Below, in pieces: positions 4,851 to 56,080 of a stretch of 64,000 bases of DNA. The DNA comes from a virus (Duplodnaviria > Caudoviricetes). The stretch covers positions 28,017-92,016 of the IMG/VR virus record IMGVR_UViG_2934356561_000002. One strand, written 5' to 3'. Every line of letters starts with the position of its first letter. Positions within the stretch are counted from its first letter, which is position 1. The notes beneath the pieces were generated by a model. That model was not told the origin of the DNA, ran no database searches, and was given only the letters and a program-made list of their open reading frames with translations. The position numbers and the translations under genes were made by a program.

Positions 4851-5782
4851 CGGGGGGCCTCCACGAACTCAACGTCGTACACGAAGGTGGTGAATGTGCT
4901 GACGTTGATCCGGCCGGTGTTCCCGGAGGCGCCGTTGGCTTGGGCGCGCAGTAGCTGGGTGGTGCCTCGGTAGGCGGCGGGGATGGTGAGGGTGTCCGCC
5001 ACGATGGCGGGCAGCTTGCGGACGCCGGTGCCCTGGTTGTCGTCCAGGGAGATCGGCTGGAGGGTGAGGCTGGACCCGAGCGTGGCCTGCAACGCGCCGG
5101 TGTAGTTGGCGACGGAGTAGCGGATCGGGCTGACGTCGACTCGTGCCCGGATCTGGGTGGCCCAGTCGGGCACGTAGAAGCTCATGCCGGGTTCGGTGGA
5201 GAAGTAGGAGTACGTGGTCGAGGCGCCGATCAAGGCGCTGTCGGTGGTCGGTGAGTGGGTTTGCATCTGCCGGTCGCGTCGCGGGTTGGCCAGAAACCGC
5301 AGGTCCTTGATCATGGCGTCCGTGATCGTGGACGTGGACGCGGGAATGTCGATCCGGGCCAGGGGGATGCCGGTCCGGCCGTCGGGAATTGTTGTCGCGG
5401 CCGCAGACACGTTGCTGATGACCTGGAAGTAGTTGATCTGGTCGACGACAGGGTTGAGGGTGCCTTCGTACTCGGGGTCCTCGATGCGCAGGATGACCAT
5501 GTCGGAGCGTGCGGACCCGCCGGTGGCGGCGATCGGGACGGTGGCAGCGCCGATGTTGCAGACGGAATACGTGCCCTGGAAGGGGTTGACGCGGCCGCGG
5601 ACGACTCCGGACCCGTCTCCTACCTGGACGCTGGAACCGGGGGTGCTGAGCTGGGTGACCTTGAGGTCGGTGCCCTGCGTGATGCCCTCGGCGCCGGAGA
5701 CGAGGTCGCGGACCATCATGCGGAACTGCTGGGCACTGTGGGTGGCACCGTTGACGAGGATCGGCACGGGGAAAAGGGCCAT
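4847..5782 (-). CDS. minor tail protein
   Basis: RSDMVILRIEDPEY...IPLARIDIPA motif of actinophage tail proteins; synteny. Confidence 0.7.
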   Translation of the reverse strand: MALFPVPILVNGATHSAQQFRMMVRDLVSGAEGITQGTDLKVTQLSTPGSSVQVGDGSGVVRGRVNPFQGTYSVCNIGAATVPIAATGGSARSDMVILRIEDPEYEGTLNPVVDQINYFQVISNVSAAATTIPDGRTGIPLARIDIPASTSTITDAMIKDLRFLANPRRDRQMQTHSPTTDSALIGASTTYSYFSTEPGMSFYVPDWATQIRARVDVSPIRYSVANYTGALQATLGSSLTLQPISLDDNQGTGVRKLPAIVADTLTIPAAYRGTTQLLRAQANGASGNTGRINVSTFTTFVYDVEFVEAPR

Positions 5783-48252: not shown

Positions 48253-49077
48253 ATGAACAAGGAAGCACTGCGAGATCTCCTCAAGAGCCACCGAGACCGC
48301 ATAGATCCGGAGGATCACGGCTATAAACGGCTCAGCCGCCAGGGCCGCAGAGCCCCCGGCCTGACCCAACACCAAGTCGACCAGCTCCTCACCCGAGAAA
48401 TGGGCACCTACCGGCTCCTGGAGTCCGGCAGGAACCCCCGGCCGAAGACCGACCTCCTGCGGGACGTAGCGGCACTTTTCGGAATGGACGAACACGCCTG
48501 GGTGCTCCTCAACCGGTACGCGCTCGGCCAGGAACCCCCCGCCCCCCTCTACACAGACTCAGGGTTCCAGGTCCCCTCGTCATGGCAGCAGGCCGTCGAC
48601 GGGATCGAGCACATGGCATACGTGACGGACGCCGCGTGGAACATGGTCTGCCACAACAAGCACCTCCCGGGCATGTACCCGGGCCGGCGGGTCCCGCAGA
48701 ACATCATGCGGTGGATGTGCCTGGACCCCGAAGCGCGCACCGTCCTCGCGGACTGGGAAACAGAGTGGGCGCCCCGCATCCTCCCCCAGCTCCGTGCCGC
48801 CGTGGCGATCCACCACGACGCCACCGTCAAGCAGCTCGAGACCGACGTGATGGCCGACCCGGTCGCCGGGCCCCTCTACGAAGCGCGTGGTGCGGTCATC
48901 CACCCCGACGGCGACGAACGCCCTCTCACCCACCCCCTCCTCGGGCGTGGCTGGGTCACCATGTGCTCCGCGACACCCGAAGGATCCCCCGGCGCCCGCC
49001 TCATGATCCTCCTTTTCCGGCCAGGTACGGCCCGGCCCGCCCCGCACGCCATCCTCCGCGCACCCGGAACCCCCTGA
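48253..49077 (+). CDS. XRE/MmyB-family transcriptional regulator
   Basis: LRDLLKSHRDRIDP..GRRAPGLTQ HTH; AYVTDAAWN PAS-like ligand domain. Confidence 0.88.
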   Translation: MNKEALRDLLKSHRDRIDPEDHGYKRLSRQGRRAPGLTQHQVDQLLTREMGTYRLLESGRNPRPKTDLLRDVAALFGMDEHAWVLLNRYALGQEPPAPLYTDSGFQVPSSWQQAVDGIEHMAYVTDAAWNMVCHNKHLPGMYPGRRVPQNIMRWMCLDPEARTVLADWETEWAPRILPQLRAAVAIHHDATVKQLETDVMADPVAGPLYEARGAVIHPDGDERPLTHPLLGRGWVTMCSATPEGSPGARLMILLFRPGTARPAPHAILRAPGTP

Positions 49078-49184
49078 CCACACCAGCCCCACACACCCCA
49101 GCCCGGACAACCAGGGGCAAGGATCCAGCCACAAGCAGCTACTTTGAGGAAGTCTTTACCCCTAGCTGCCCCGTGGAGGACCCC

Positions 49185-50225
49185 TTGCCCGCCTACGTCA
49201 CCCTCCCGCAGGTCACCCTCCCCCCGCACAAGGTCACCACCGACGCGATCCTCGAAGACATCCGCGCCCACCACCCCGACCACCCCCGGCTCGAGGTCAT
49301 CACGCGGGCAATAGGCAACAGCGGAGTGAAAACGAGGCACTTCACGAGACCTCTCTCCTCCCCCACCGTGAATGGCACCGCAGGAGTCCTCGAGCGCACC
49401 ACCGCCGCGTTTGAGGACTCCCTGCACATGGCCACGGACGCCGCGCTCAAGGCCCTCGCGCACGCCGGCCTCACCCCCGACCAGGTCAATGTCATCATCA
49501 CGTCGCACGCCACCGGATGGGCCGTCCCAAATCTCGACGTCCGACTCATCGACCGTCTCGGGCTCCGGCCCACGGTGCGCCGCATCCCGATGACGACCCT
49601 CGCATGCGCCGGCGGCGTCCAGTCCCTCATCCGGGCCGCCGACCAGGTCACGGTCCGCCCCACCGACACCGTGCTCGTCGTCGTCACCGAGACCCTCTCC
49701 ACGTCGTACAACCACGCCGACACATCGGTCCCGTCGATGATCTACAAAGCCCTGTTCGCCGACAGTGCCGCCGCAGCCGTCGTCACCGCCGAGCCCCTCC
49801 AACCCGGGCTCCGCATCGACGACAGCCTCGAATACTGGCTCCCCGAATCCCTCGACCGGTACCGCGGCCGCCTCGACGACACCGGCATGCACTTCGACTC
49901 CGACCGGCGGGCCCCCGCCGCCGCATCCCACGCGATGCCCGCCGTTCTCCAGTGGATCGGTGACCGCATCCTCGACTGGGTCGCGATCCACCCCGGCGGC
50001 CCCAGCATCATCCACAACGTCGCCGAGGCCGTAGGGCTCGACGACCTGGACGCCCACCACTCCTACGCGTCCCTCGCCGAGAACGGGAACCTCGGCGGCG
50101 CATCGGTCCTCGACGTCCTCGCTCGCACACACACCACCCCGCCCGCAGGCGGCGCGGAAGGACTCCTCGTCGCGTTCGGCCCCGGTTTCACCACCGCAGC
50201 CATCCGCGGCGCCTGGCACGCCTGA
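49185..50225 (+). CDS. type III polyketide synthase (chalcone synthase-like)
   Basis: GGAGG RBS + TTG; LACAGG (Cys), LFAD, HPGG (His), GNLGGAS (Asn), FGPGF. Confidence 0.93.
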   Translation: MPAYVTLPQVTLPPHKVTTDAILEDIRAHHPDHPRLEVITRAIGNSGVKTRHFTRPLSSPTVNGTAGVLERTTAAFEDSLHMATDAALKALAHAGLTPDQVNVIITSHATGWAVPNLDVRLIDRLGLRPTVRRIPMTTLACAGGVQSLIRAADQVTVRPTDTVLVVVTETLSTSYNHADTSVPSMIYKALFADSAAAAVVTAEPLQPGLRIDDSLEYWLPESLDRYRGRLDDTGMHFDSDRRAPAAASHAMPAVLQWIGDRILDWVAIHPGGPSIIHNVAEAVGLDDLDAHHSYASLAENGNLGGASVLDVLARTHTTPPAGGAEGLLVAFGPGFTTAAIRGAWHA

Positions 50226-50893: not shown

Positions 50894-51196
50894 ATGAGCA
50901 CCGAGATCTACAACCAGAACTACGGCCGCAGCATCTCCTCCTACGAACTCCTCGACGAGACCCGCGAGACGTACGGCCTCAGCAGGCAGGACGCCCACGA
51001 TGCGATCCACGCCATGCTCAGCGGAATCATCGAGACCGATGGCGAGGAGACCGTGATCCTCGACCGCACTCCCGTCCGCCCCGAACTTCTGACGAGCAAC
51101 CCGCAGGACGTCGACATCGACCAGTGGATCACTGTGTCCGACGAGACCGCCGACGCCATCCGTGAGGCACTCGCCGCCGTATACGCCGAGCAGTAA
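50894..51196 (+). CDS. small acidic protein (anti-CRISPR/anti-defence candidate)
   Basis: GGAG RBS; 100 aa, 21 D/E versus 6 R and no K. Confidence 0.75.
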   Translation: MSTEIYNQNYGRSISSYELLDETRETYGLSRQDAHDAIHAMLSGIIETDGEETVILDRTPVRPELLTSNPQDVDIDQWITVSDETADAIREALAAVYAEQ

Positions 51197-51265
51197 CCCA
51201 CCGCCAACACATCACAGCCCGCCCCGGCGCAGCCAGGGCGGGCCGCTCCGCATGATAGGAACCCC

Positions 51266-51487
51266 ATGCCTGACGACCAGCCAGAACTCTGGACCATCGA
51301 ACAGGCCGCCGAACACCTCGGCGTCCAGCCAGGCAGCGCACGCGGACTACTCTCCCGCCGTGGGATCCGCCGCGCCGCCACCGGAAGCCATCCCGTCAGC
51401 GGCCGGATCGTAGCCCTCTACTCAGCCGACCAAGTACGCGACGTTGCCACCAACCGGCGCCCCGGCCGCCGCACCGATCTCGACTGA
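51266..51487 (+). CDS. small HTH DNA-binding protein (Aca-like position)
   Basis: LWTIEQAAEHLGVQPGSARGLLSR...RPGRRTDL. Confidence 0.8.
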   Translation: MPDDQPELWTIEQAAEHLGVQPGSARGLLSRRGIRRAATGSHPVSGRIVALYSADQVRDVATNRRPGRRTDLD

Positions 51488-51502
51488 CCCCGGCCATGAA
51501 GG

Positions 51503-51531
51503 CACCCCCTCCCGGGCTGCGGGAGGGGGTG
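51503..51531 (+). terminator. terminator-like hairpin
   Basis: CACCCCCTCCCG-GGCTG-CGGGAGGGGGTG. Confidence 0.6.
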
Positions 51532-52040
51532 GTCGCTCCCCGCGCCGGCTCGGCGGAGGTCACCGCATCCGGACCACGGTCAGCGTCCTGTGCCGCCCCG
51601 TCCCGGCGAGGACCTCCACGACCAGATCCGTCTCCACCCGCATGTACGGCTCATCCCCGGCCCGCCGCTCCTCAAGCGCCTCAGCACCGGCCAGCACAGC
51701 GCCAATCCCGGCAGCGAGGACCGGCTCCAGACGCCCCGACAGCCAGACCGGGCCACCCTCGTCCCCCACCGCCAGGACCAGATGGTGCGGCCTGACGCCA
51801 GAGCGGCCGAAACGGCCATCCCCGACAGGCCGGCTGGCACCGTGGCACGAGAAGCGGACACGCCCACGAACGAGTGACCCGTGGGCGGAGGCCGGCTACA
51901 AGAACTGCTGGCCAGGGCGCTTCCGACGGAGTCGCGAATCGAACACCGCGCGCCGAACAGCCAAAGGTTGCCGCCCTGTTGACTACGCTGAGCGCCTCGG
52001 CCGGAGCAGACCGCGATGTACTTGGGATGGAGGTGAGGGT

Positions 52041-53714
52041 GTGCCCACCACAGAGGTACTGAGGGCGTACAGATTCACCCTCGATCCGACCGACGCGCAG
52101 CGGTCCGATCTCGCCCGGCATGCCGGGGCCTGCCGGTGGGCGTACAACTACGCCCTGGCGAAGAAGCGGCAGAGCCACGAGGCGTGGGCGGCGATGCGCG
52201 ATGCGCACGTCGCCGCGGGTATGACGGAGGCCGGGGCCAAGAACGCGATCAAGCAGGCCGGGGCAGGCCTGCGGGACCGTATCGCGGTGTGGGATCACCA
52301 CCGCAAGTCCCTCATGGCGGCTGCCCGCGGCACGGCTGCGCCCGAACAACCCGCGGCCGCCGAACGGGAATCCGGTCTGGCCGGGCGGCTGCGCGGGCTC
52401 CGCGACGCTGCAACCCCCGAGACCGCGAAGACCCTGCTTGCCGAGGCCCGTCGAACCGTGAACGCCCTCAAGGCCGAGGCATTTACGGCCGGATTCCGGA
52501 CGCCGTCGTCCATGGACACCTGCGCCCTGTGGCGCACCGAGCGCGACCTGCCACGCGAGGAGGGGGGCTCCCCCTGGCACTCCGAGGTCAGCGTCTACGG
52601 GTTCACCGGGGGATTCGACCGTGCCGACGCGGCGTGGAAGAACTGGCTGGACTCCTTCAGCGGGAAGCGGGCCGGGCGCCGGGTCGGCTACCCGCGCTTC
52701 GCGGCCAAGCACCGCAGCCGCGACAGCTTCAGCCTCTACCACGATGTGAAGGCGCCGAGTATCCGACCGGACGGATACCGGCGTCTGACGCTGCCCTCCC
52801 TGGGCAGCGTCCGAATCCACAACTCGAACAAGCACCTGTCCAGGCTCCTCGACCGGGGCCAGGCTATGGTCCGGTCCGTCACGATCAGCCGCGGCGCGCA
52901 CCGGTGGTACGCGAGCGTCCTGGTCGCGGCCCAGCAGCACATCCCGGACAAGCCCACCCGCCGTCAGCGCACTGGCGGCCTGGTGGGAATCGATCTCGGC
53001 TCCCGCCATCTCGCCGCTCTCTCCTCACGGCTCGACCAGTCCGACCCCGACTCGACGCTCATCGAGCACCCCCGGTTCCTGAACCGGGACCTGGAGAAGA
53101 TTCAGCACCGTCAGCGGGCCCTCTCCCGTACCAAGAAGGGCTCCAGCCGGCGCAAGAAGGCCGCCGACCACCTCGCCCGCGCCCACCACGAGGTCGTCAT
53201 GCGCCGCACGACCTACCTCCACAAGGTGACCAAACGCCTCACGACCCGGTTCGCCCAGATCGCGATCGAGGACCTGGACCTGACCGGAATGACGGCATCG
53301 GCCCGCGGCACCGAGGAACAGCCCGGTACGAACGTCAAGGTCCAGGCCCAGTTCAACCGGCACCTCCTGGACGCCGGACTGGGTGAGCTGCGCCGCCAGC
53401 TCACCTACAAGAGCCCCTGGTACGGAGCACAGCTCATCGTCCTCGACCGAGCCGAGCCCGTCGCCAGTACGTGCGCGAAATGCGGGGAGCGAGACCCAAG
53501 CTCCACACCGTCGCGCGCGAGATTCACCTGCCCTTCGTGCGGGAACGCCGTGCCCCGCCACGAAAACGCTGTCGCGAACATCATTCGCACAGCACGCAGA
53601 CAAACGGCAGTCGCCTCCGACAGGGGGGAGACTCAAAACGCTCGCCGAGTCCCGATCCCCGGCGCCCGCAAGAGCGCCAGGGCCGAGACGCTGACGCGAG
53701 AAGACACCGGCTAA
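52041..53714 (+). CDS. tnpB: TnpB/Cas12f-like RNA-guided protein with RuvC-III D>H (predicted nuclease-dead), CRISPR-adjacent
   Basis: GGAGGTGA RBS; RAYRFTLDPT..HAGACRWAYNYAL; GYPRF; GIDLG (RuvC-I); IAIEDL (RuvC-II); CAKC..CPSC; PRHENAVANI in place of DRDxNAAxNI. Confidence 0.9.
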   Translation: MPTTEVLRAYRFTLDPTDAQRSDLARHAGACRWAYNYALAKKRQSHEAWAAMRDAHVAAGMTEAGAKNAIKQAGAGLRDRIAVWDHHRKSLMAAARGTAAPEQPAAAERESGLAGRLRGLRDAATPETAKTLLAEARRTVNALKAEAFTAGFRTPSSMDTCALWRTERDLPREEGGSPWHSEVSVYGFTGGFDRADAAWKNWLDSFSGKRAGRRVGYPRFAAKHRSRDSFSLYHDVKAPSIRPDGYRRLTLPSLGSVRIHNSNKHLSRLLDRGQAMVRSVTISRGAHRWYASVLVAAQQHIPDKPTRRQRTGGLVGIDLGSRHLAALSSRLDQSDPDSTLIEHPRFLNRDLEKIQHRQRALSRTKKGSSRRKKAADHLARAHHEVVMRRTTYLHKVTKRLTTRFAQIAIEDLDLTGMTASARGTEEQPGTNVKVQAQFNRHLLDAGLGELRRQLTYKSPWYGAQLIVLDRAEPVASTCAKCGERDPSSTPSRARFTCPSCGNAVPRHENAVANIIRTARRQTAVASDRGETQNARRVPIPGARKSARAETLTREDTG

Positions 53715-53761
53715 CACCGGTGCCACCCCCGGAGAGCGATCCCCGGGCCCCCGCAACGCAC
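53608..53761 (+). ncRNA. omegaRNA-derived scaffold / putative tracrRNA
   Basis: Hairpins GTCGCCTCC-GACA-GGGGGGAGAC, CACCGG-CTAACA-CCGGTG, CCCGGAGA-GCGA-TCCCCGGG; 3' CCCCCGCA complementary to the repeat. Confidence 0.55.
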
Positions 53762-53819
53762 CACCCCTAACTCAACAGAGAACCAACACGCAGCTAACCA
53801 AACTCACAGCTCATCCAGG

Positions 53820-54126
53820 GTGCTACCCATGCGCGTGCGGGGAGGTCCACCTGCCAAACATCACCCTCAGGGCAAGGTTTGTGCTACCCATGCGCGTGCG
53901 GGGAGGTCCGGAGTCGGCTCCGCGAGGTAACGGGATACGAGGTGCTACCCATGCGCGTGCGGGGAGGTCCCTGACCTACCAGAACATCACGACGCGAGGT
54001 TCAGCACCCTTAGGTGTGGCAAGCGCCATGGACAGTGTTCCACCCACGTGCTTGCGGGGAGGTCCTTGATTTTCACTACGGTGTGCAGACGGGCCGGGTG
54101 TCGCCCACATACGCGCGGGGAGCGAC
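53820..54126 (+). CRISPR. CRISPR array B: 3 identical 29-bp repeats + 2 degenerate, 32-bp spacers
   Basis: GTGCTACCCATGCGCGTGCGGGGAGGTCC at 53820, 53881, 53942; variants at 54035 and 54098. Confidence 0.92.
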
Positions 54127-54152
54127 GCGAGGAAGGCGCGGCCCGAACAGCC

Positions 54153-54482
54153 CTACCCACTGGCCAGCCCCGTCTGCGGATTACAGATCTGGCACGGCTC
54201 GATGTCTGGCTCGGCGAGCGCGATCAGGGCTTCCTCACGGTCGAGGAATCCGAGCTCGGACTTGAAGAGGGTGCAGCCGCCGCGGTGCAGCATCGCGGGC
54301 ATCCCGCCGCGTTGCGGCTGGATTTTCCAGGACTGCTCCGCCCGCGCCCGCTGCCGCGCCCGTGCCTCCTGCTGTTCCTTGACCTCAAGCTCCCGGATCC
54401 GGCCCCGGACCTGACGCAGCTGCCACTCCAGCCACTCGGCGAGGGCCCGGTTCTTGTCCAGGTCGGATATGCCGCCGGACAC
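54153..54482 (-). CDS. DUF6233-like protein
   Basis: LHRGGC...EEALIAL...IEPCQICNP. Confidence 0.8.
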   Translation of the reverse strand: MSGGISDLDKNRALAEWLEWQLRQVRGRIRELEVKEQQEARARQRARAEQSWKIQPQRGGMPAMLHRGGCTLFKSELGFLDREEALIALAEPDIEPCQICNPQTGLASG

Positions 54483-54484
54483 GG

Positions 54485-54780
54485 CTACGCCTCGGCCGGC
54501 TCGTGGGCGTGCTTGAGCGCCATGCGGGCCTTGACCACGTCCCCGCTCAGCGCCGCCCAGTACGGGTGCGTCATCACCTCGGCACTCAGCCGGCGCAGCT
54601 CATCCTGGAAGCGCTGGACTTCTGTGGCCTGCTCCTCCGTGTACCCGGGACTGTCCGACTTGGAGGAGATGTAGTTGCTGTGGAGCTGCTTGTCGCTCTC
54701 CCACCCGGGCATCGGCTCGGCCGACCACGGCAAAGTCTTGGCGTACTCCTCGTACGCGGCGCGGGCTGTTCTTTGGCACG
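54485..54780 (-). CDS. hypothetical protein (start uncertain, possibly truncated)
   Basis: LPWSAEPMPGW...SPGYTEEQ...THPYW...ARMALK. Confidence 0.55.
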
Positions 54781-54974
54781 CGCCAATGCTACGTCTGTTC
54801 GAATACCGGATGCGAATGGCGCGCCGGACACCCCCAGCCCCCACCTGCCACACTGACCGTGGTCCGCCACGTCACCCCCGCCGCGGCGGGCCACCCCCGT
54901 ACGCAGAAAAGCGGCCCACCATCCCCAGGGACAGTGGGCCGCTCGGCGGGGAGGCCAGGCCCGCACCGTACGAC

Positions 54975-55631
54975 TCAGCCACGCTCCGTGTACGGCAAAA
55001 GCACAGAATCCACCCTCCCGGCCAGCTGTGCCGCACGCTGCGGATCCCGGGCCTTCGGCGCCCCGGCCAGGGTCGGCACCAGCCAGTCCGGGCCCAGCAC
55101 GTGCACCACACCCCGCTGGCCCGGCACCCGCGCCTCCAGCCGGCCACCGGCTATCGGGGACCCGTGGACCACAATGAGCGGCCACACCTGATCCGGGCGC
55201 AGCCCGACCGCGGTCGCAACCACTTCTGCATACCCGGCGACCTTCTCGACCTGGTCGTGCCGGTCGTCCTCACCGCAGTGCACCCGGCCGCCGACCAGTG
55301 CCGTGGTGCGGCCGCGGTGCCAGTTCTTCGTATCAAGGACCACGACCGCGGTGCCGCACGGCGACGCCAGTGCCGTGTCGATGTTGAACCTGCGGCCCCG
55401 CAGCCGGAGGTCGTGACGGATGTGCCACCCGGCGGCCTCGAGCGGGGCCAATAACAGAGCCGTCGCCTCCTCCCCTGCAGCGCCGTGCGCCCACCGGGCC
55501 GCTGCCGCATTCGCGCACCGCACCTTCGCACCACCGAGGCCGAGGAACGCTAGCAGGCGCCGCCACAGGCCACGCCGGGCACCCGCACGCAGTTCCGCGG
55601 CACGGGCTGCAGCCGAGTTCCTCGTACTCAC
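54975..55631 (-). CDS. NERD (nuclease-related domain) protein
   Basis: GAAGEE..HDLRL..NID..VVLDTKNW. Confidence 0.85.
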   Translation of the reverse strand: MSTRNSAAARAAELRAGARRGLWRRLLAFLGLGGAKVRCANAAAARWAHGAAGEEATALLLAPLEAAGWHIRHDLRLRGRRFNIDTALASPCGTAVVVLDTKNWHRGRTTALVGGRVHCGEDDRHDQVEKVAGYAEVVATAVGLRPDQVWPLIVVHGSPIAGGRLEARVPGQRGVVHVLGPDWLVPTLAGAPKARDPQRAAQLAGRVDSVLLPYTERG

Positions 55632-56080
55632 CGCCCGCCCCCGGCGATCACGGCGGCGACGGCGATCCAGCCCTTGTGCCACGCCTGGTCCAGCAGCAGG
55701 CCGGCGCCCGGGTCGCGCTTCAGCCACTTGGTGTGTCCGGTACGTCGGGCGAACCGCACGAGGGCGGTCGACGGCCCCTTCTCCTGCCACCGGCCACCGG
55801 ACCGGTCAGCGACATAGTGCGTCACCGCGGACACGGCCAGCCCAGCGGCCGCACGCCGCCAGTCCAGGCCGAGGCGCAACGCCCGGTCTGCGGCGAGCAG
55901 GGCGACCGCCTGCGTGGCCGTATAGCTGGCAACATGCCTTGCGCATGCAGCCCTTCCTTCCCAGCCGCACTTGCCCTTCGCACTAGCGTCGGCGTCCCGC
56001 TGCCCCCAGAAGTCACCAACGTCGTGGGAGGCGTTCAGTGCCGCATAGGCGCCGATTGCTCGTACTGCTGTGGTGGTCAT
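55628..56080 (-). CDS. DUF3307-like membrane protein
   Basis: HDVGDFWGQ...HVASY...THYVADR...DQAWH. Confidence 0.75.
   Translation of the reverse strand: MTTTAVRAIGAYAALNASHDVGDFWGQRDADASAKGKCGWEGRAACARHVASYTATQAVALLAADRALRLGLDWRRAAAGLAVSAVTHYVADRSGGRWQEKGPSTALVRFARRTGHTKWLKRDPGAGLLLDQAWHKGWIAVAAVIAGGGR

Follow-up and report, generated by a model that had tools for sequence, protein, structure and literature searches.

The locus described here raises the question of whether a CRISPR array lying immediately behind a TnpB-like gene on a phage genome serves the product of that gene, its repeats supplying one strand of a guide RNA whose other strand is encoded at the 3' end of the gene. In the window, by which we mean the whole stretch of 64,000 nucleotides analyzed and which belongs to a complete 92-kb virus record of a Streptomyces-type phage, a TnpB-like gene is followed by a structured RNA scaffold of 150 nt, an A/C-rich leader, and an array of five repeats with a 61-nt period, the first repeat beginning 106 nt 3' of the stop codon (table 1). 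The original prediction, made from the letters alone, was that the repeat provides the missing 3' strand of the terminal omegaRNA stem. As detailed below, this putative tracrRNA:crRNA design is supported by covariation, by a preference for cognate partners, and by the closure of the same stem in cis in relatives, and we consider it likely, with a probability of about 0.8, that the phage carries here a type V CRISPR module of the V-U4/Cas12n kind that lacks adaptation genes of its own and has a TnpB-like protein as its base.

Table 1. Features of the locus, in window coordinates
Feature	Position	Strand	Basis or remarks
TnpB-like/Cas12n-like effector gene	52041..53714	+	557 aa, GTG start; translation, Pfam, motifs
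tracrRNA/omegaRNA-like scaffold, five helices	53611..53747	+	RNAalifold on homologous scaffolds
Final scaffold hairpin	53728..53747	+	CCCGGAGA-GCGA-TCCCCGGG; 8-bp stem, one A-C mismatch, GCGA (GNRA) tetraloop
Putative anti-repeat core CCCCCGCA	53748..53755	+	Duplex energy against chance, covariation at homologous position
A/C-rich leader or linker	53756..53819	+	Composition, conserved columns, I-E leader end
Repeat 1, 29 nt GTGCTACCCATGCGCGTGCGGGGAGGTCC	53820..53848	+	
Spacer 1, 32 nt	53849..53880	+	
Repeat 2, 29 nt	53881..53909	+	
Spacer 2, 32 nt	53910..53941	+	
Repeat 3, 29 nt	53942..53970	+	
Spacer 3 region, 66 nt	53971..54036	+	
Repeat 4, degenerate	54037..54065	+	Within 30-nt copy 54036-54065, 80% identical to reference copy
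Spacer 4, 32 nt	54066..54097	+	
Repeat 5, degenerate, terminal	54098..54126	+	Tail GGGGAGCGAC, the usual one in Streptomyces relatives

A Miniature TnpB-like Protein Encoded by a Phage

The product of the gene carries the Pfam domains HTH_OrfB_IS605, OrfB_IS605 (6.8e-22), and Cas12f1-like_TNB, and its size, together with its RuvC and zinc-finger (TNB) domains, fits the miniature TnpB-like effector class (400–700 aa). Its nearest solved relative is RdCas12n (PDB 9J09, E 3.3e-74, residues 153–536), and its best segment is 53% identical to locus L057 of Actinomadura craniellae, the species of AcCas12n. The open reading frame is intact, with a protein of a Streptomyces genome being 98% identical; the closest homologues, P0002 and P0003, show 98% and 72% identity, respectively. 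The recognizable motifs are GIDLG (RuvC-I), IAIEDL (RuvC-II), a CxxC...CxxC zinc finger, and PRHEN (RuvC-III), the last of which leaves the D-E-D triad of RuvC incomplete: D318 and E410 are present, and the third Asp is replaced by His507, which aligns with the catalytic D361 (DRD motif) of ISDra2 TnpB. Since a catalytic Asp is replaced, DNA cleavage becomes uncertain, and it is with this caution that we infer cutting by the effector, as opposed to binding only. The His is nevertheless kept at the RuvC-III site in at least 37 of 122 proteins (the query and 121 listed homologues), which speaks for selection and against decay, and PMC10691335 describes a conserved D-to-H change in other TnpB branches that may remain active.

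The locus is present as a single copy in the 92-kb record, in which a search for the adaptation gene Cas1, with a positive control matching 7 of 14 genomes, gave no match. None of five upstream ORFs examined contains a tnpA-like domain (no Pfam family matched in them), an Rfam scan of positions 51000–55000 with E up to 1 returned no family, and a scan for sigma-70 promoters, which is uninformative for Streptomyces, returned none either. With the locus as query, a distant BLAST search gave no match among 50,697 phage records. No relatives of the ORFs in the 3-kb flanks of a homologous viral locus, L002, were found in the window, and these two phage loci are thus not syntenic. The runs listed as containing the locus comprise four DNA runs and no RNA run; in one of the DNA runs, the array has an extra 33-nt spacer and repeat.

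A Conserved Scaffold RNA Followed by a Putative Anti-Repeat

The stacked hairpins that had been proposed to overlap the 3' end of tnpB, including a GCGA stem, are present: the scaffold takes in the final ~100 nt of the ORF, and it extends 33 nt beyond the stop codon. The consensus obtained with RNAalifold from 44 homologous scaffolds comprises 30 pairs, 24 of which display compensatory changes, and the window scaffold makes 27 of these 30. In the final hairpin, all eight pairs vary on both sides across 39 loci, with 90% of cells paired. Judged by comparison of homologous sequences, the RNA structure of the scaffold is conserved.

Directly 3' of this GNRA hairpin, within GGGCCCCCGCAACGC, lies the candidate anti-repeat, whose partner is the UGCGGGG(A)G of the repeat. 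The predicted pairing does form in RNAduplex, where the 14 nt past the hairpin and the 3'-terminal 17 nt of the repeat reach −20.9 kcal/mol, with 7 contiguous Watson–Crick pairs and one beyond a bulged A. It had been cautioned that such a GC-rich match can occur by chance. Among 11,900 random 14-mers (window, both strands), 0.44% reach −20.9 kcal/mol and 1.2% give a 7-bp run, and the 8-nt match by itself is only moderately beyond chance. What makes it convincing is its position and the covariation seen in relatives. The covariation between anti-repeat and repeat, whose absence was to refute the original prediction, is found across 39 array-bearing homologous loci, with 6 of the 8 pairs varying on both sides and 89.3% of cells paired. 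The covariation score is 0.58 against 0.20 for shuffles (reached by 0 of 500) and at most 0.13 for slid registers, bearing in mind that the sequences are related and that the structure derives from those same sequences, both of which inflate the controls somewhat.

Cognate partners are also favored over noncognate ones, the helix being 7.4 versus 5.3 bp long and the duplex −16.1 versus −11.0 kcal/mol, a difference matched by 0 of 20,000 permutations, also with 33 nonredundant repeat tails. The viral locus L002 offers a perfect 12-nt complement at the equivalent position. According to our reading of alignment A3, the window duplex is itself one base off the family register, with 4 of the 8 family-register pairs, or 7 + 1 with the A bulged. 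When left unconstrained, a search for duplexes of each repeat tail with 190 nt of upstream sequence, covering 40 loci, gave −20.3 kcal/mol for cognate and −19.7 kcal/mol for noncognate combinations (p 0.036); it was too noisy in GC-rich DNA, and the position-fixed test was therefore used instead.

Closure of the Stem in cis in Relatives without an Array

An array of at least three repeats with a 61-nt period is found 0–230 nt 3' of the gene in 40 of 80 sequences, comprising 78 genome loci (L057 of A. craniellae included), the viral locus L002, and the window. In a quick IQ-TREE phylogeny with SH-aLRT and no outgroup, the window falls beside array-bearing clades, in a clade that is starred and has 18 rows, 15 of these rows being array-less and two lacking DNA context. 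On this basis, the array of the window could be a late or a decaying acquisition. In the nearest array-less relatives, whose proteins are 57–60% identical to that of the split-form window, the same hairpin is followed by GGGCGUCCC, a variable A/C-rich loop, and GGGACGAUCC, such that the same stem is shut in cis; one of these relatives (L046) presents the compensatory change CAUCCC/GGGAUG. We also considered whether array-less relatives retain a whole fossil repeat in the 29 nt before GATCC, but clear likeness is limited to the last ~10 nt, and the best full-length score is 8 versus a shuffle maximum of 9, so that no whole fossil repeat is demonstrated.

An Array Close to Streptomyces Type I-E Arrays

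The A/C-rich linker or leader that had been noted is likewise present, with a GC fraction of 0.52, a GC skew of −0.55, and an AT skew of +0.59 over positions 53760–53819. Its 3' end, CAGCTCATCCAGG, resembles CAGGTCAnnAAGG, a motif that precedes repeat 1 in relatives, as it does in one Streptomyces I-E leader (L096). Repeats 1–3 are identical over 29 nt, and two of the five repeats are degenerate. The window repeat is identical in 26 aligned columns to a Streptomyces type I-E repeat, with the same 29 + 32 unit and 61-nt period, and one I-E leader ends in CAGGTCACGAAG, as do the leaders of the relatives of the window. The Streptomyces genomes with a matching I-E repeat carry Cse1, and since the repeat is so near type I-E, it might also serve a host Cascade. 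The window array differs from these I-E arrays in lying directly behind a TnpB-like gene, on a phage that has no Cascade or Cas1 genes.

Spacer 1 has no self-target; a 20-mer from it matched five viral contigs in three unrelated, lower-GC coding contexts, but these were rejected as targets, given that the matches end at 20–21 nt and lack an AAN flank, and are probably due to chance. The first 20–21 nt of spacer 3 match exactly the actinophage-type Phage_portal genes of two distinct high-GC viral contigs, the matches amounting to 23–24 of 32 positions with a 5' flank of AAG in one contig and AGC in the other. According to PMC12216341, AAG, which lies directly 5' of one portal match, is the AcCas12n PAM. 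The first 20 nt of spacers 2 and 4 found no match in viral contigs, nor did 26-mers of spacers 1 and 3 in metagenome contigs. The array had no match in the 50,697 phage records (distant BLAST, E up to 10), and the array region searched against 401 Streptomyces genomes gave repeat-driven matches and short GC-rich ones near E 0.001–0.01, with no full spacer match. Thus, no full-length protospacer was present in the viral contigs, phage records, metagenome contigs, and Streptomyces genomes searched.

Proposed Mechanism and Alternative Explanations

In the type V module that we favor, the DNA of the final ~100 nt of the gene and ~40 nt beyond it would encode a five-helix scaffold RNA ending in the GNRA hairpin, and the 8 nt past this hairpin would bind the 3' half of every repeat (UGCGGGG-A-G), by which pairing each repeat–spacer unit would finish the terminal stem and set its spacer as guide. 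As the array follows the scaffold on the same strand, with just 64 nt of leader between them, spacer 1 might be usable also in cis, omegaRNA-like, from a read-through transcript, and later spacers would require pairing in trans. We infer that these RNAs are transcribed and processed, that they form an RNP with the effector, and that adaptation proteins of the host are used: given that the array comes close to a copy of a Streptomyces I-E array in repeat, 29 + 32 unit, and leader end, the host I-E Cas1–Cas2 would most likely load new spacers. With at least one spacer apparently from a phage portal gene, the likely role of such a module would be competition with other phages or prophages.

Three other explanations deserve to be weighed against this one. 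It is unlikely, in our view, that the locus is a decaying or half-made relic, either an ordinary TnpB whose single cis guide consists of scaffold, leader, repeat 1, and spacer 1, or a nuclease-dead one, with the further repeats inert. Such a relic would agree with the 15 clade neighbors of known context being single-guide, array-less TnpBs, with the His in RuvC-III, with the degeneracy of 2 of the 5 repeats and the shifted duplex register, and with the lack of a full protospacer in the searches made. However, the intact ORF with its 98% identical counterpart in a Streptomyces genome, the 27 of 30 scaffold pairs retained, the three repeats identical over 29 nt, the variation of the array by one spacer–repeat unit among strains, and the persistence of the His in at least 37 of 122 proteins all argue against decay.

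We find it very unlikely that the phage carries a type I-E mini-array for the Cas6e and Cascade of its host, with the neighboring tnpB and the 8-nt match as coincidences, despite the 26 aligned columns, the 29 + 32 unit, the I-E-like leader end, the lack of Cas1 in the phage, and three genomes in which such I-E arrays and Cse1 occur without a close homologue of the window protein. In the window, the I-E palindrome is broken in its 5' half, leaving the CCCCGC/GCGGGG stem interrupted (hairpin of −8.6 vs. −14.3 kcal/mol); the linkage of array and tnpB recurs in 40 of 80 sequences; and the covariation of the post-hairpin segment with the repeat is left unexplained by host Cascade use. The array may still have a dual use, by a host Cascade and by the TnpB-like effector. 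As for pure chance, that is, a GC-rich 8-mer beside an unrelated repeat in 70% GC DNA, it is scarcely credible: 8-nt GC matches are not rare, as the 1.2% of random 14-mers with a 7-bp run illustrates, but the position is here set by homology, right after a conserved hairpin, and L002 has its 12-nt complement at the matching site. Both the cognate/noncognate permutations and the covariation of segment and repeat across 39 loci contradict an accident.

A more far-reaching scenario can also be sketched, which we regard as possible but doubtful when taken as a whole, namely that this lineage offers a close view, in a phage, of the switch between omegaRNA and tracrRNA + crRNA. In this scenario, a His-type RuvC-III would mark the clade of the effector, the other members of which join their scaffold in cis to a repeat tail through a leader-like loop; the phage copy would retain or have regained a live array borrowed from the I-E system of its host, and host Cas1–Cas2 would load AAG-flanked spacers aimed at the portal genes of rival phages. 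With its active-site His, the effector might then bind and silence instead of cutting. Whatever the outcome for this scenario, the split window and its cis-closed relatives at 57–60% identity constitute a matched pair for how a single guide RNA of a transposon turns into a tracrRNA and an array; a phage Cas12n-like module with an array that looks borrowed from host I-E is a concrete case in which to ask if type I machinery supplies type V systems that have no adaptation genes; and the conserved RuvC-III His is a natural variant for the question of cutting versus binding.

Comparison with Known Systems

TranC systems are reportedly transposon–CRISPR intermediates in which the omegaRNA of a TnpB-like protein is, in functional terms, divided between a tracrRNA and a crRNA. 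The window shares this split-omegaRNA concept and could possibly work in both cis and trans form, whereas LaTranC (PDB 9JFO/9JFQ) is only remotely related in sequence (C-terminal part, E 4e-07) and belongs to another lineage and another host group. With the IS200/IS605 TnpB–omegaRNA of ISDra2 (PDB 8H1J/8BF8), the window has in common the protein fold and motifs, a scaffold over the gene end, and a guide after the last stem, but the one guide of ISDra2 is set by the transposon end, where the window has an array. More generally, the window differs from transposon-borne TnpB–omegaRNA loci (IS605/IS607) in carrying an array in place of a single fixed guide, in occurring once in the record, and in showing no tnpA-like domain in five upstream ORFs. 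According to PMC10691335, omegaRNAs re-emerged in Cas12f-derived TnpBs by fusion of a tracrRNA with a half-repeat; the array-less sisters of the window resemble these fusions, with scaffold, loop, and repeat tail joined in cis, although the Cas12f-derived TnpBs form another lineage than that of the window.

The closest parallel is found in Cas12n (type V-U4/V-N; RdCas12n and AcCas12n), which, according to PMC12216341, uses a crRNA and a tracrRNA overlapping its ORF, so that the design principle of a split guide is already known from miniature Cas12n systems. The window differs in that its protein appears, in the quick tree, to group with array-less TnpBs and not with the array-bearing clades, in its RuvC-III (RHEN, against DRDxN in Cas12n), and in its location on a phage genome with an anti-repeat register shifted by one base. 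An A-rich (AAN) PAM is possible for the window, one partial portal match being flanked by AAG and the other by AGC. The window resembles Cas12n in its miniature TnpB-like effector without adaptation genes, in its multi-stem scaffold, and, by in silico prediction, in a tracrRNA that overlaps the ORF at its 3' end and would act together with crRNAs from a short array.

A single-copy TnpB-like locus with an array on a complete phage genome

The TnpB-like gene, its scaffold and its array occur once in an IMG/VR virus record of 92,016 bp that has direct terminal repeats and a 100% completeness rating, of which the window is bases 28017-92016, and ORFs near the locus match phage families (primase, SSB, RusA resolvase, sigma factor). 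All the elements listed in the original prediction lie where they had been placed (see the table). The interval between repeats 3 and 4 measures 66 nt rather than 32, a contig of one DNA run skips 54005-54053 around it, and this array unit may have suffered damage or partial loss. Three genes on the opposite strand adjoin the 3' side of the array (54153-55790). Further upstream, an ORF with type III polyketide synthase domains is overlapped by an ORF resembling an MmyB-like regulator (HTH_31 and MLTR_LBD), both of them uncommon cargo for what is classified as a complete phage.

Features of the locus and its surroundings (window coordinates)
Feature	Position	Strand	Remark
Polyketide synthase ORF	48253-50225	+	type III, chalcone/stilbene synthase-like
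TnpB-like ORF	52041-53714	+	557 aa; three TnpB domains (Pfam HTH_OrfB_IS605, OrfB_IS605, Cas12f1-like_TNB)
Motif PRHEN	~53553-53567		
His507 codon	53559-53561		
GCGA-tetraloop hairpin	53728-53747		downstream of ORF
Anti-repeat	53748-53755		CCCCCGCA
A/C-rich stretch	up to 53819		
Leader-motif version	53806-53819		CAGCTCATCCAGG
Repeats	starts 53820, 53881, 53942; degenerate copies 54037, 54098		n=5, 29 nt, period 61 nt
Repeat 3-repeat 4 interval	53971-54036		66 nt
DUF6233 protein	54153-54482	-	
122-aa ORF	54485-54853	-	without family
NERD protein	54975-55790	-	nuclease-related domain

Anti-repeat and repeat covary across array-bearing relatives

In the window, the 14 nt past the hairpin and the last 17 nt of the repeat form a duplex of -20.9 kcal/mol, an energy matched by 0.44% of random 14-mers from the window (n=11,900), 1.2% of which attain a 7-bp run. 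This is suggestive rather than decisive, and relatives were therefore examined. A protein search returned 766 relatives from 8,000 scored candidates, headed by Streptomyces proteins of 98% and 72% identity, the next being at ~60%. Eighty sequences were compared, namely the window, 78 loci from a one-genome-per-species scan (the best 80 of 232 confirmed stretches), and L002, a locus from a viral scan that lies on an unrelated contig of ~93 kb, has a protein 49% identical and is flanked by DNA with nothing in common with the window. An array (at least three repeats, ~61-nt period, 0-230 nt past the gene) is present in 40 of the 80, in hosts including Streptomyces, Kitasatospora, Actinomadura, Frankia, Nocardia and Mycobacterium-group genera, and several more loci have two repeats. 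Two of six further viral loci (L081 and L084) also carry arrays, and each of the two resembles a prophage region within an isolate genome.

At every array locus, the nucleotides right after the GNRA hairpin complement the G-run of the locus's own repeat and its next 3-4 nt: CGCUCCCC faces GGGGAGCG, CAUCCCC faces GGGGAUG, CCACCCCC faces GGGGGUGG, CUACCCC faces GGGGUAG and CAGCCCC faces GGGGCUG, and the complement in L002 is a perfect 12-mer. Over all 40 loci, cognate helices average 7.4 bp and -16.1 kcal/mol versus 5.3 bp and -11.0 kcal/mol for non-cognate ones, means that none of 20,000 permutations attained, as was also the case with 33 non-redundant repeat tails. Covariation between anti-repeat and repeat, the check put forward with the original prediction, is present when contiguous DNA is aligned from the hairpin through the whole of repeat 1 for 39 of the 40 loci (L040, which has an insertion in its first repeat copy, being omitted): six of the eight pairs change on both sides, one position reading CG 12, GC 12 and AU 11 times, and 89.3% of the helix's cells are paired; with the structure slid by 1-3 columns, pairing falls to 38-46%. 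The covariation score of the GNRA hairpin and this helix together is 0.58, versus 0.20 in shuffled alignments (0 of 500 attain 0.58), and because so many different pair types occur, a structural constraint is the only reasonable reading of these counts, even for sequences that are kin and from which the tested structure was itself drawn. The cognate-pair test and the covariation thus support a split guide in which, as predicted, the repeat would supply the 3' strand of the terminal stem. The window is an outlier in this family: four of the eight family-register pairs form, and its seven contiguous Watson-Crick pairs, with one more beyond the bulged A, lie one base further 5' in the repeat.

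The scaffold itself was aligned for 44 sequences (the window, L002, 33 array loci and nine array-less loci), with L023, L032, L041, L053, L079, L009 and L047, where no anchor was located, as well as L003, L006 and L012, standing outside. RNAalifold finds five helices with 30 pairs, 24 of them with compensatory changes; the window forms 27 of the 30, for a family mean of 27.3.

The terminal stem closes in cis in putative nearest kin

A quick IQ-TREE phylogeny with SH-aLRT support was built on 69 rows, leaving out three rows with internal stops and 10 loci whose match does not span residues 180-510. In it, the window and the 98% and 72% proteins belong to a starred clade that adjoins array-bearing clades and counts 15 array-less rows among its 18. 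The array-less members (~593 aa, 57-60% identity) have the scaffold and hairpin of the window, followed by GGGCGUCCC, a variable A/C-rich loop of ~10-130 nt, GGGACGAUCC and then GUGUUCUGGCAGA, with a compensatory CAUCCC/GGGAUG pair in one locus. On this basis, the terminal stem built from anti-repeat and repeat in the window is predicted to close in cis in its nearest kin, and the A/C-rich linker of the window corresponds to their loop. According to passages of PMC10691335, there have been ~50 independent TnpB-to-Cas12 transitions, and omegaRNAs have re-emerged through fusion of tracrRNA and half-repeat.

In ~593-aa relatives, GGGACGATCC, the 3' strand of the terminal stem, is followed by GTGTTCTGGCAGA (13 nt), kept across species ~30-150 nt past the stop codon (L004, L005, L007-L010, L012, L014, L016, L045 and L046) and in part of the array-less relatives followed by TCGACA; GTGTTCTGGCAGA may extend the scaffold or serve as a conserved guide or target site. 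The most basal loci of the array-less clade, L018 (~4897-4990) and L011 (past the stop codon), seem to hold two degenerate repeat-like units ~59-61 nt apart, so that mini-arrays may be commoner in this clade than the three-repeat cut-off shows.

Type I-E likeness of the array, and its spacers

Used as a query against 401 Streptomyces genomes, the array region matched large arrays whose repeat, GTGCTCCCCGCGCGTGCGGGGATGGTCCC, is the same as that of the window in 26 aligned columns. All three genomes checked among those with such arrays carry a Cse1 gene, and none of these three has a homologue of the window protein at E <=1e-20. The predicted fold of the type I-E repeat is a hairpin of 7 bp at -14.3 kcal/mol; in the window repeat the stem is interrupted, at -8.6 kcal/mol. 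In one I-E array, the leader terminates in GCAGGTCACGAAGA immediately 5' of repeat 1 (L096, 1487-1503). The same motif, as CAGGTCAnnAAGG, is located just 5' of the first repeat in most TnpB-linked arrays (columns ~128-141 of the contiguous-DNA alignment), and the window keeps a recognisable version of it. The phage genome has no Cas1. From this single I-E leader and the sequence likeness, we infer that TnpB-linked arrays would have originated from type I-E arrays and would rely on adaptation by the host's I-E system; the only analogous type V/type I proposal in our literature search pairs V-F with I-B (part of bioRxiv 10.1101/2024.04.09.587696).

Spacers 1 and 3 have no self-target in the phage's own genome, nor do their longer strings match metagenome contigs, and the first 20 nt of spacers 2 and 4 match no viral contig. 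Spacer 3 is identical over its first 20-21 nt to Phage_portal (PF04860) genes on two distinct high-GC viral contigs, where the protein motif LTYQNIT is encoded (total identity 23-24/32), with AAG as the 5' flank of one site and AGC of the other; these portal fragments have no relative in the phage. Spacer 1 has 20-21-nt matches only, in three unrelated contexts, which are probably due to chance. Its first 20-21 nt (from 53849-53868) are exact in five viral contigs (L090-L094) of lower-GC coding context, more than expected from uniform randomness. The locus is present in four DNA runs from four studies and in no RNA run among the matches listed. One DNA run is identical across 51900-54400, another shows 11 differences across the gene stretch (51900-53848) as well as three changes in spacer 2, its contigs leaving spacer 1 uncovered, and another has an additional 33-nt spacer and repeat within the array; array content thus differs between strains.

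Comparison with Cas12n and TranC

The nearest solved structure to the window protein is 9J09 (E 3.3e-74), which passages of PMC12216341 present as RdCas12n, of type V-U4/V-N, along with Cas12n guides made of crRNA and a tracrRNA that overlaps the Cas12n ORF, and A-rich PAMs (AcCas12n AAG, RdCas12n AAC). L057, from the AcCas12n species Actinomadura craniellae, has an array of nine repeats. In array-bearing relatives (L013-L079), the last ~60 codons of the ORF translate scaffold DNA into a ...KREDTGPPxPVPPQRSDPL tail, which fits the published Cas12n architecture; the window frame stops after ...REDTG, and the same nucleotides continue untranslated. The 593-aa clade likewise has its stop codon there, with the same DNA untranslated beyond.

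As for the active site, DRDEN of ISDra2 TnpB, whose second Asp is the catalytic D361, aligns with PRHEN, so that this position is His507 in the window protein, which retains the RuvC-I Asp, the RuvC-II Glu and the zinc finger. At least 37 of the 122 proteins checked (the query plus 121 listed homologues) have an xRHxN motif, as does the array-less clade, and a DRDxN-type motif is present in all 34 array loci where the motif was found, out of the 39 others. A His-type RuvC-III is common to a large clade of Streptomyces/Kitasatospora TnpBs. Passages of PMC10691335 report D-to-H at the same site in other TnpB branches and argue that conserved replacements may keep activity.

Overall, the observation behind the original prediction is confirmed, and its split-guide interpretation is supported at the sequence level; it amounts to a re-derivation of a published architecture, since crRNA and tracrRNA are described for Cas12n in part of PMC12216341. 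The window system is not classed as a plain Cas12n member, because His507 departs from the catalytic triad and the quick tree places the protein among array-less TnpBs. To judge from its sequence, it would work on the same split-guide principle as Cas12n or TranC, which is therefore already known; what distinguishes it from a plain Cas12n is the combination of a phage-borne locus, a His-type RuvC-III, a putatively I-E-derived array and a shifted duplex register.
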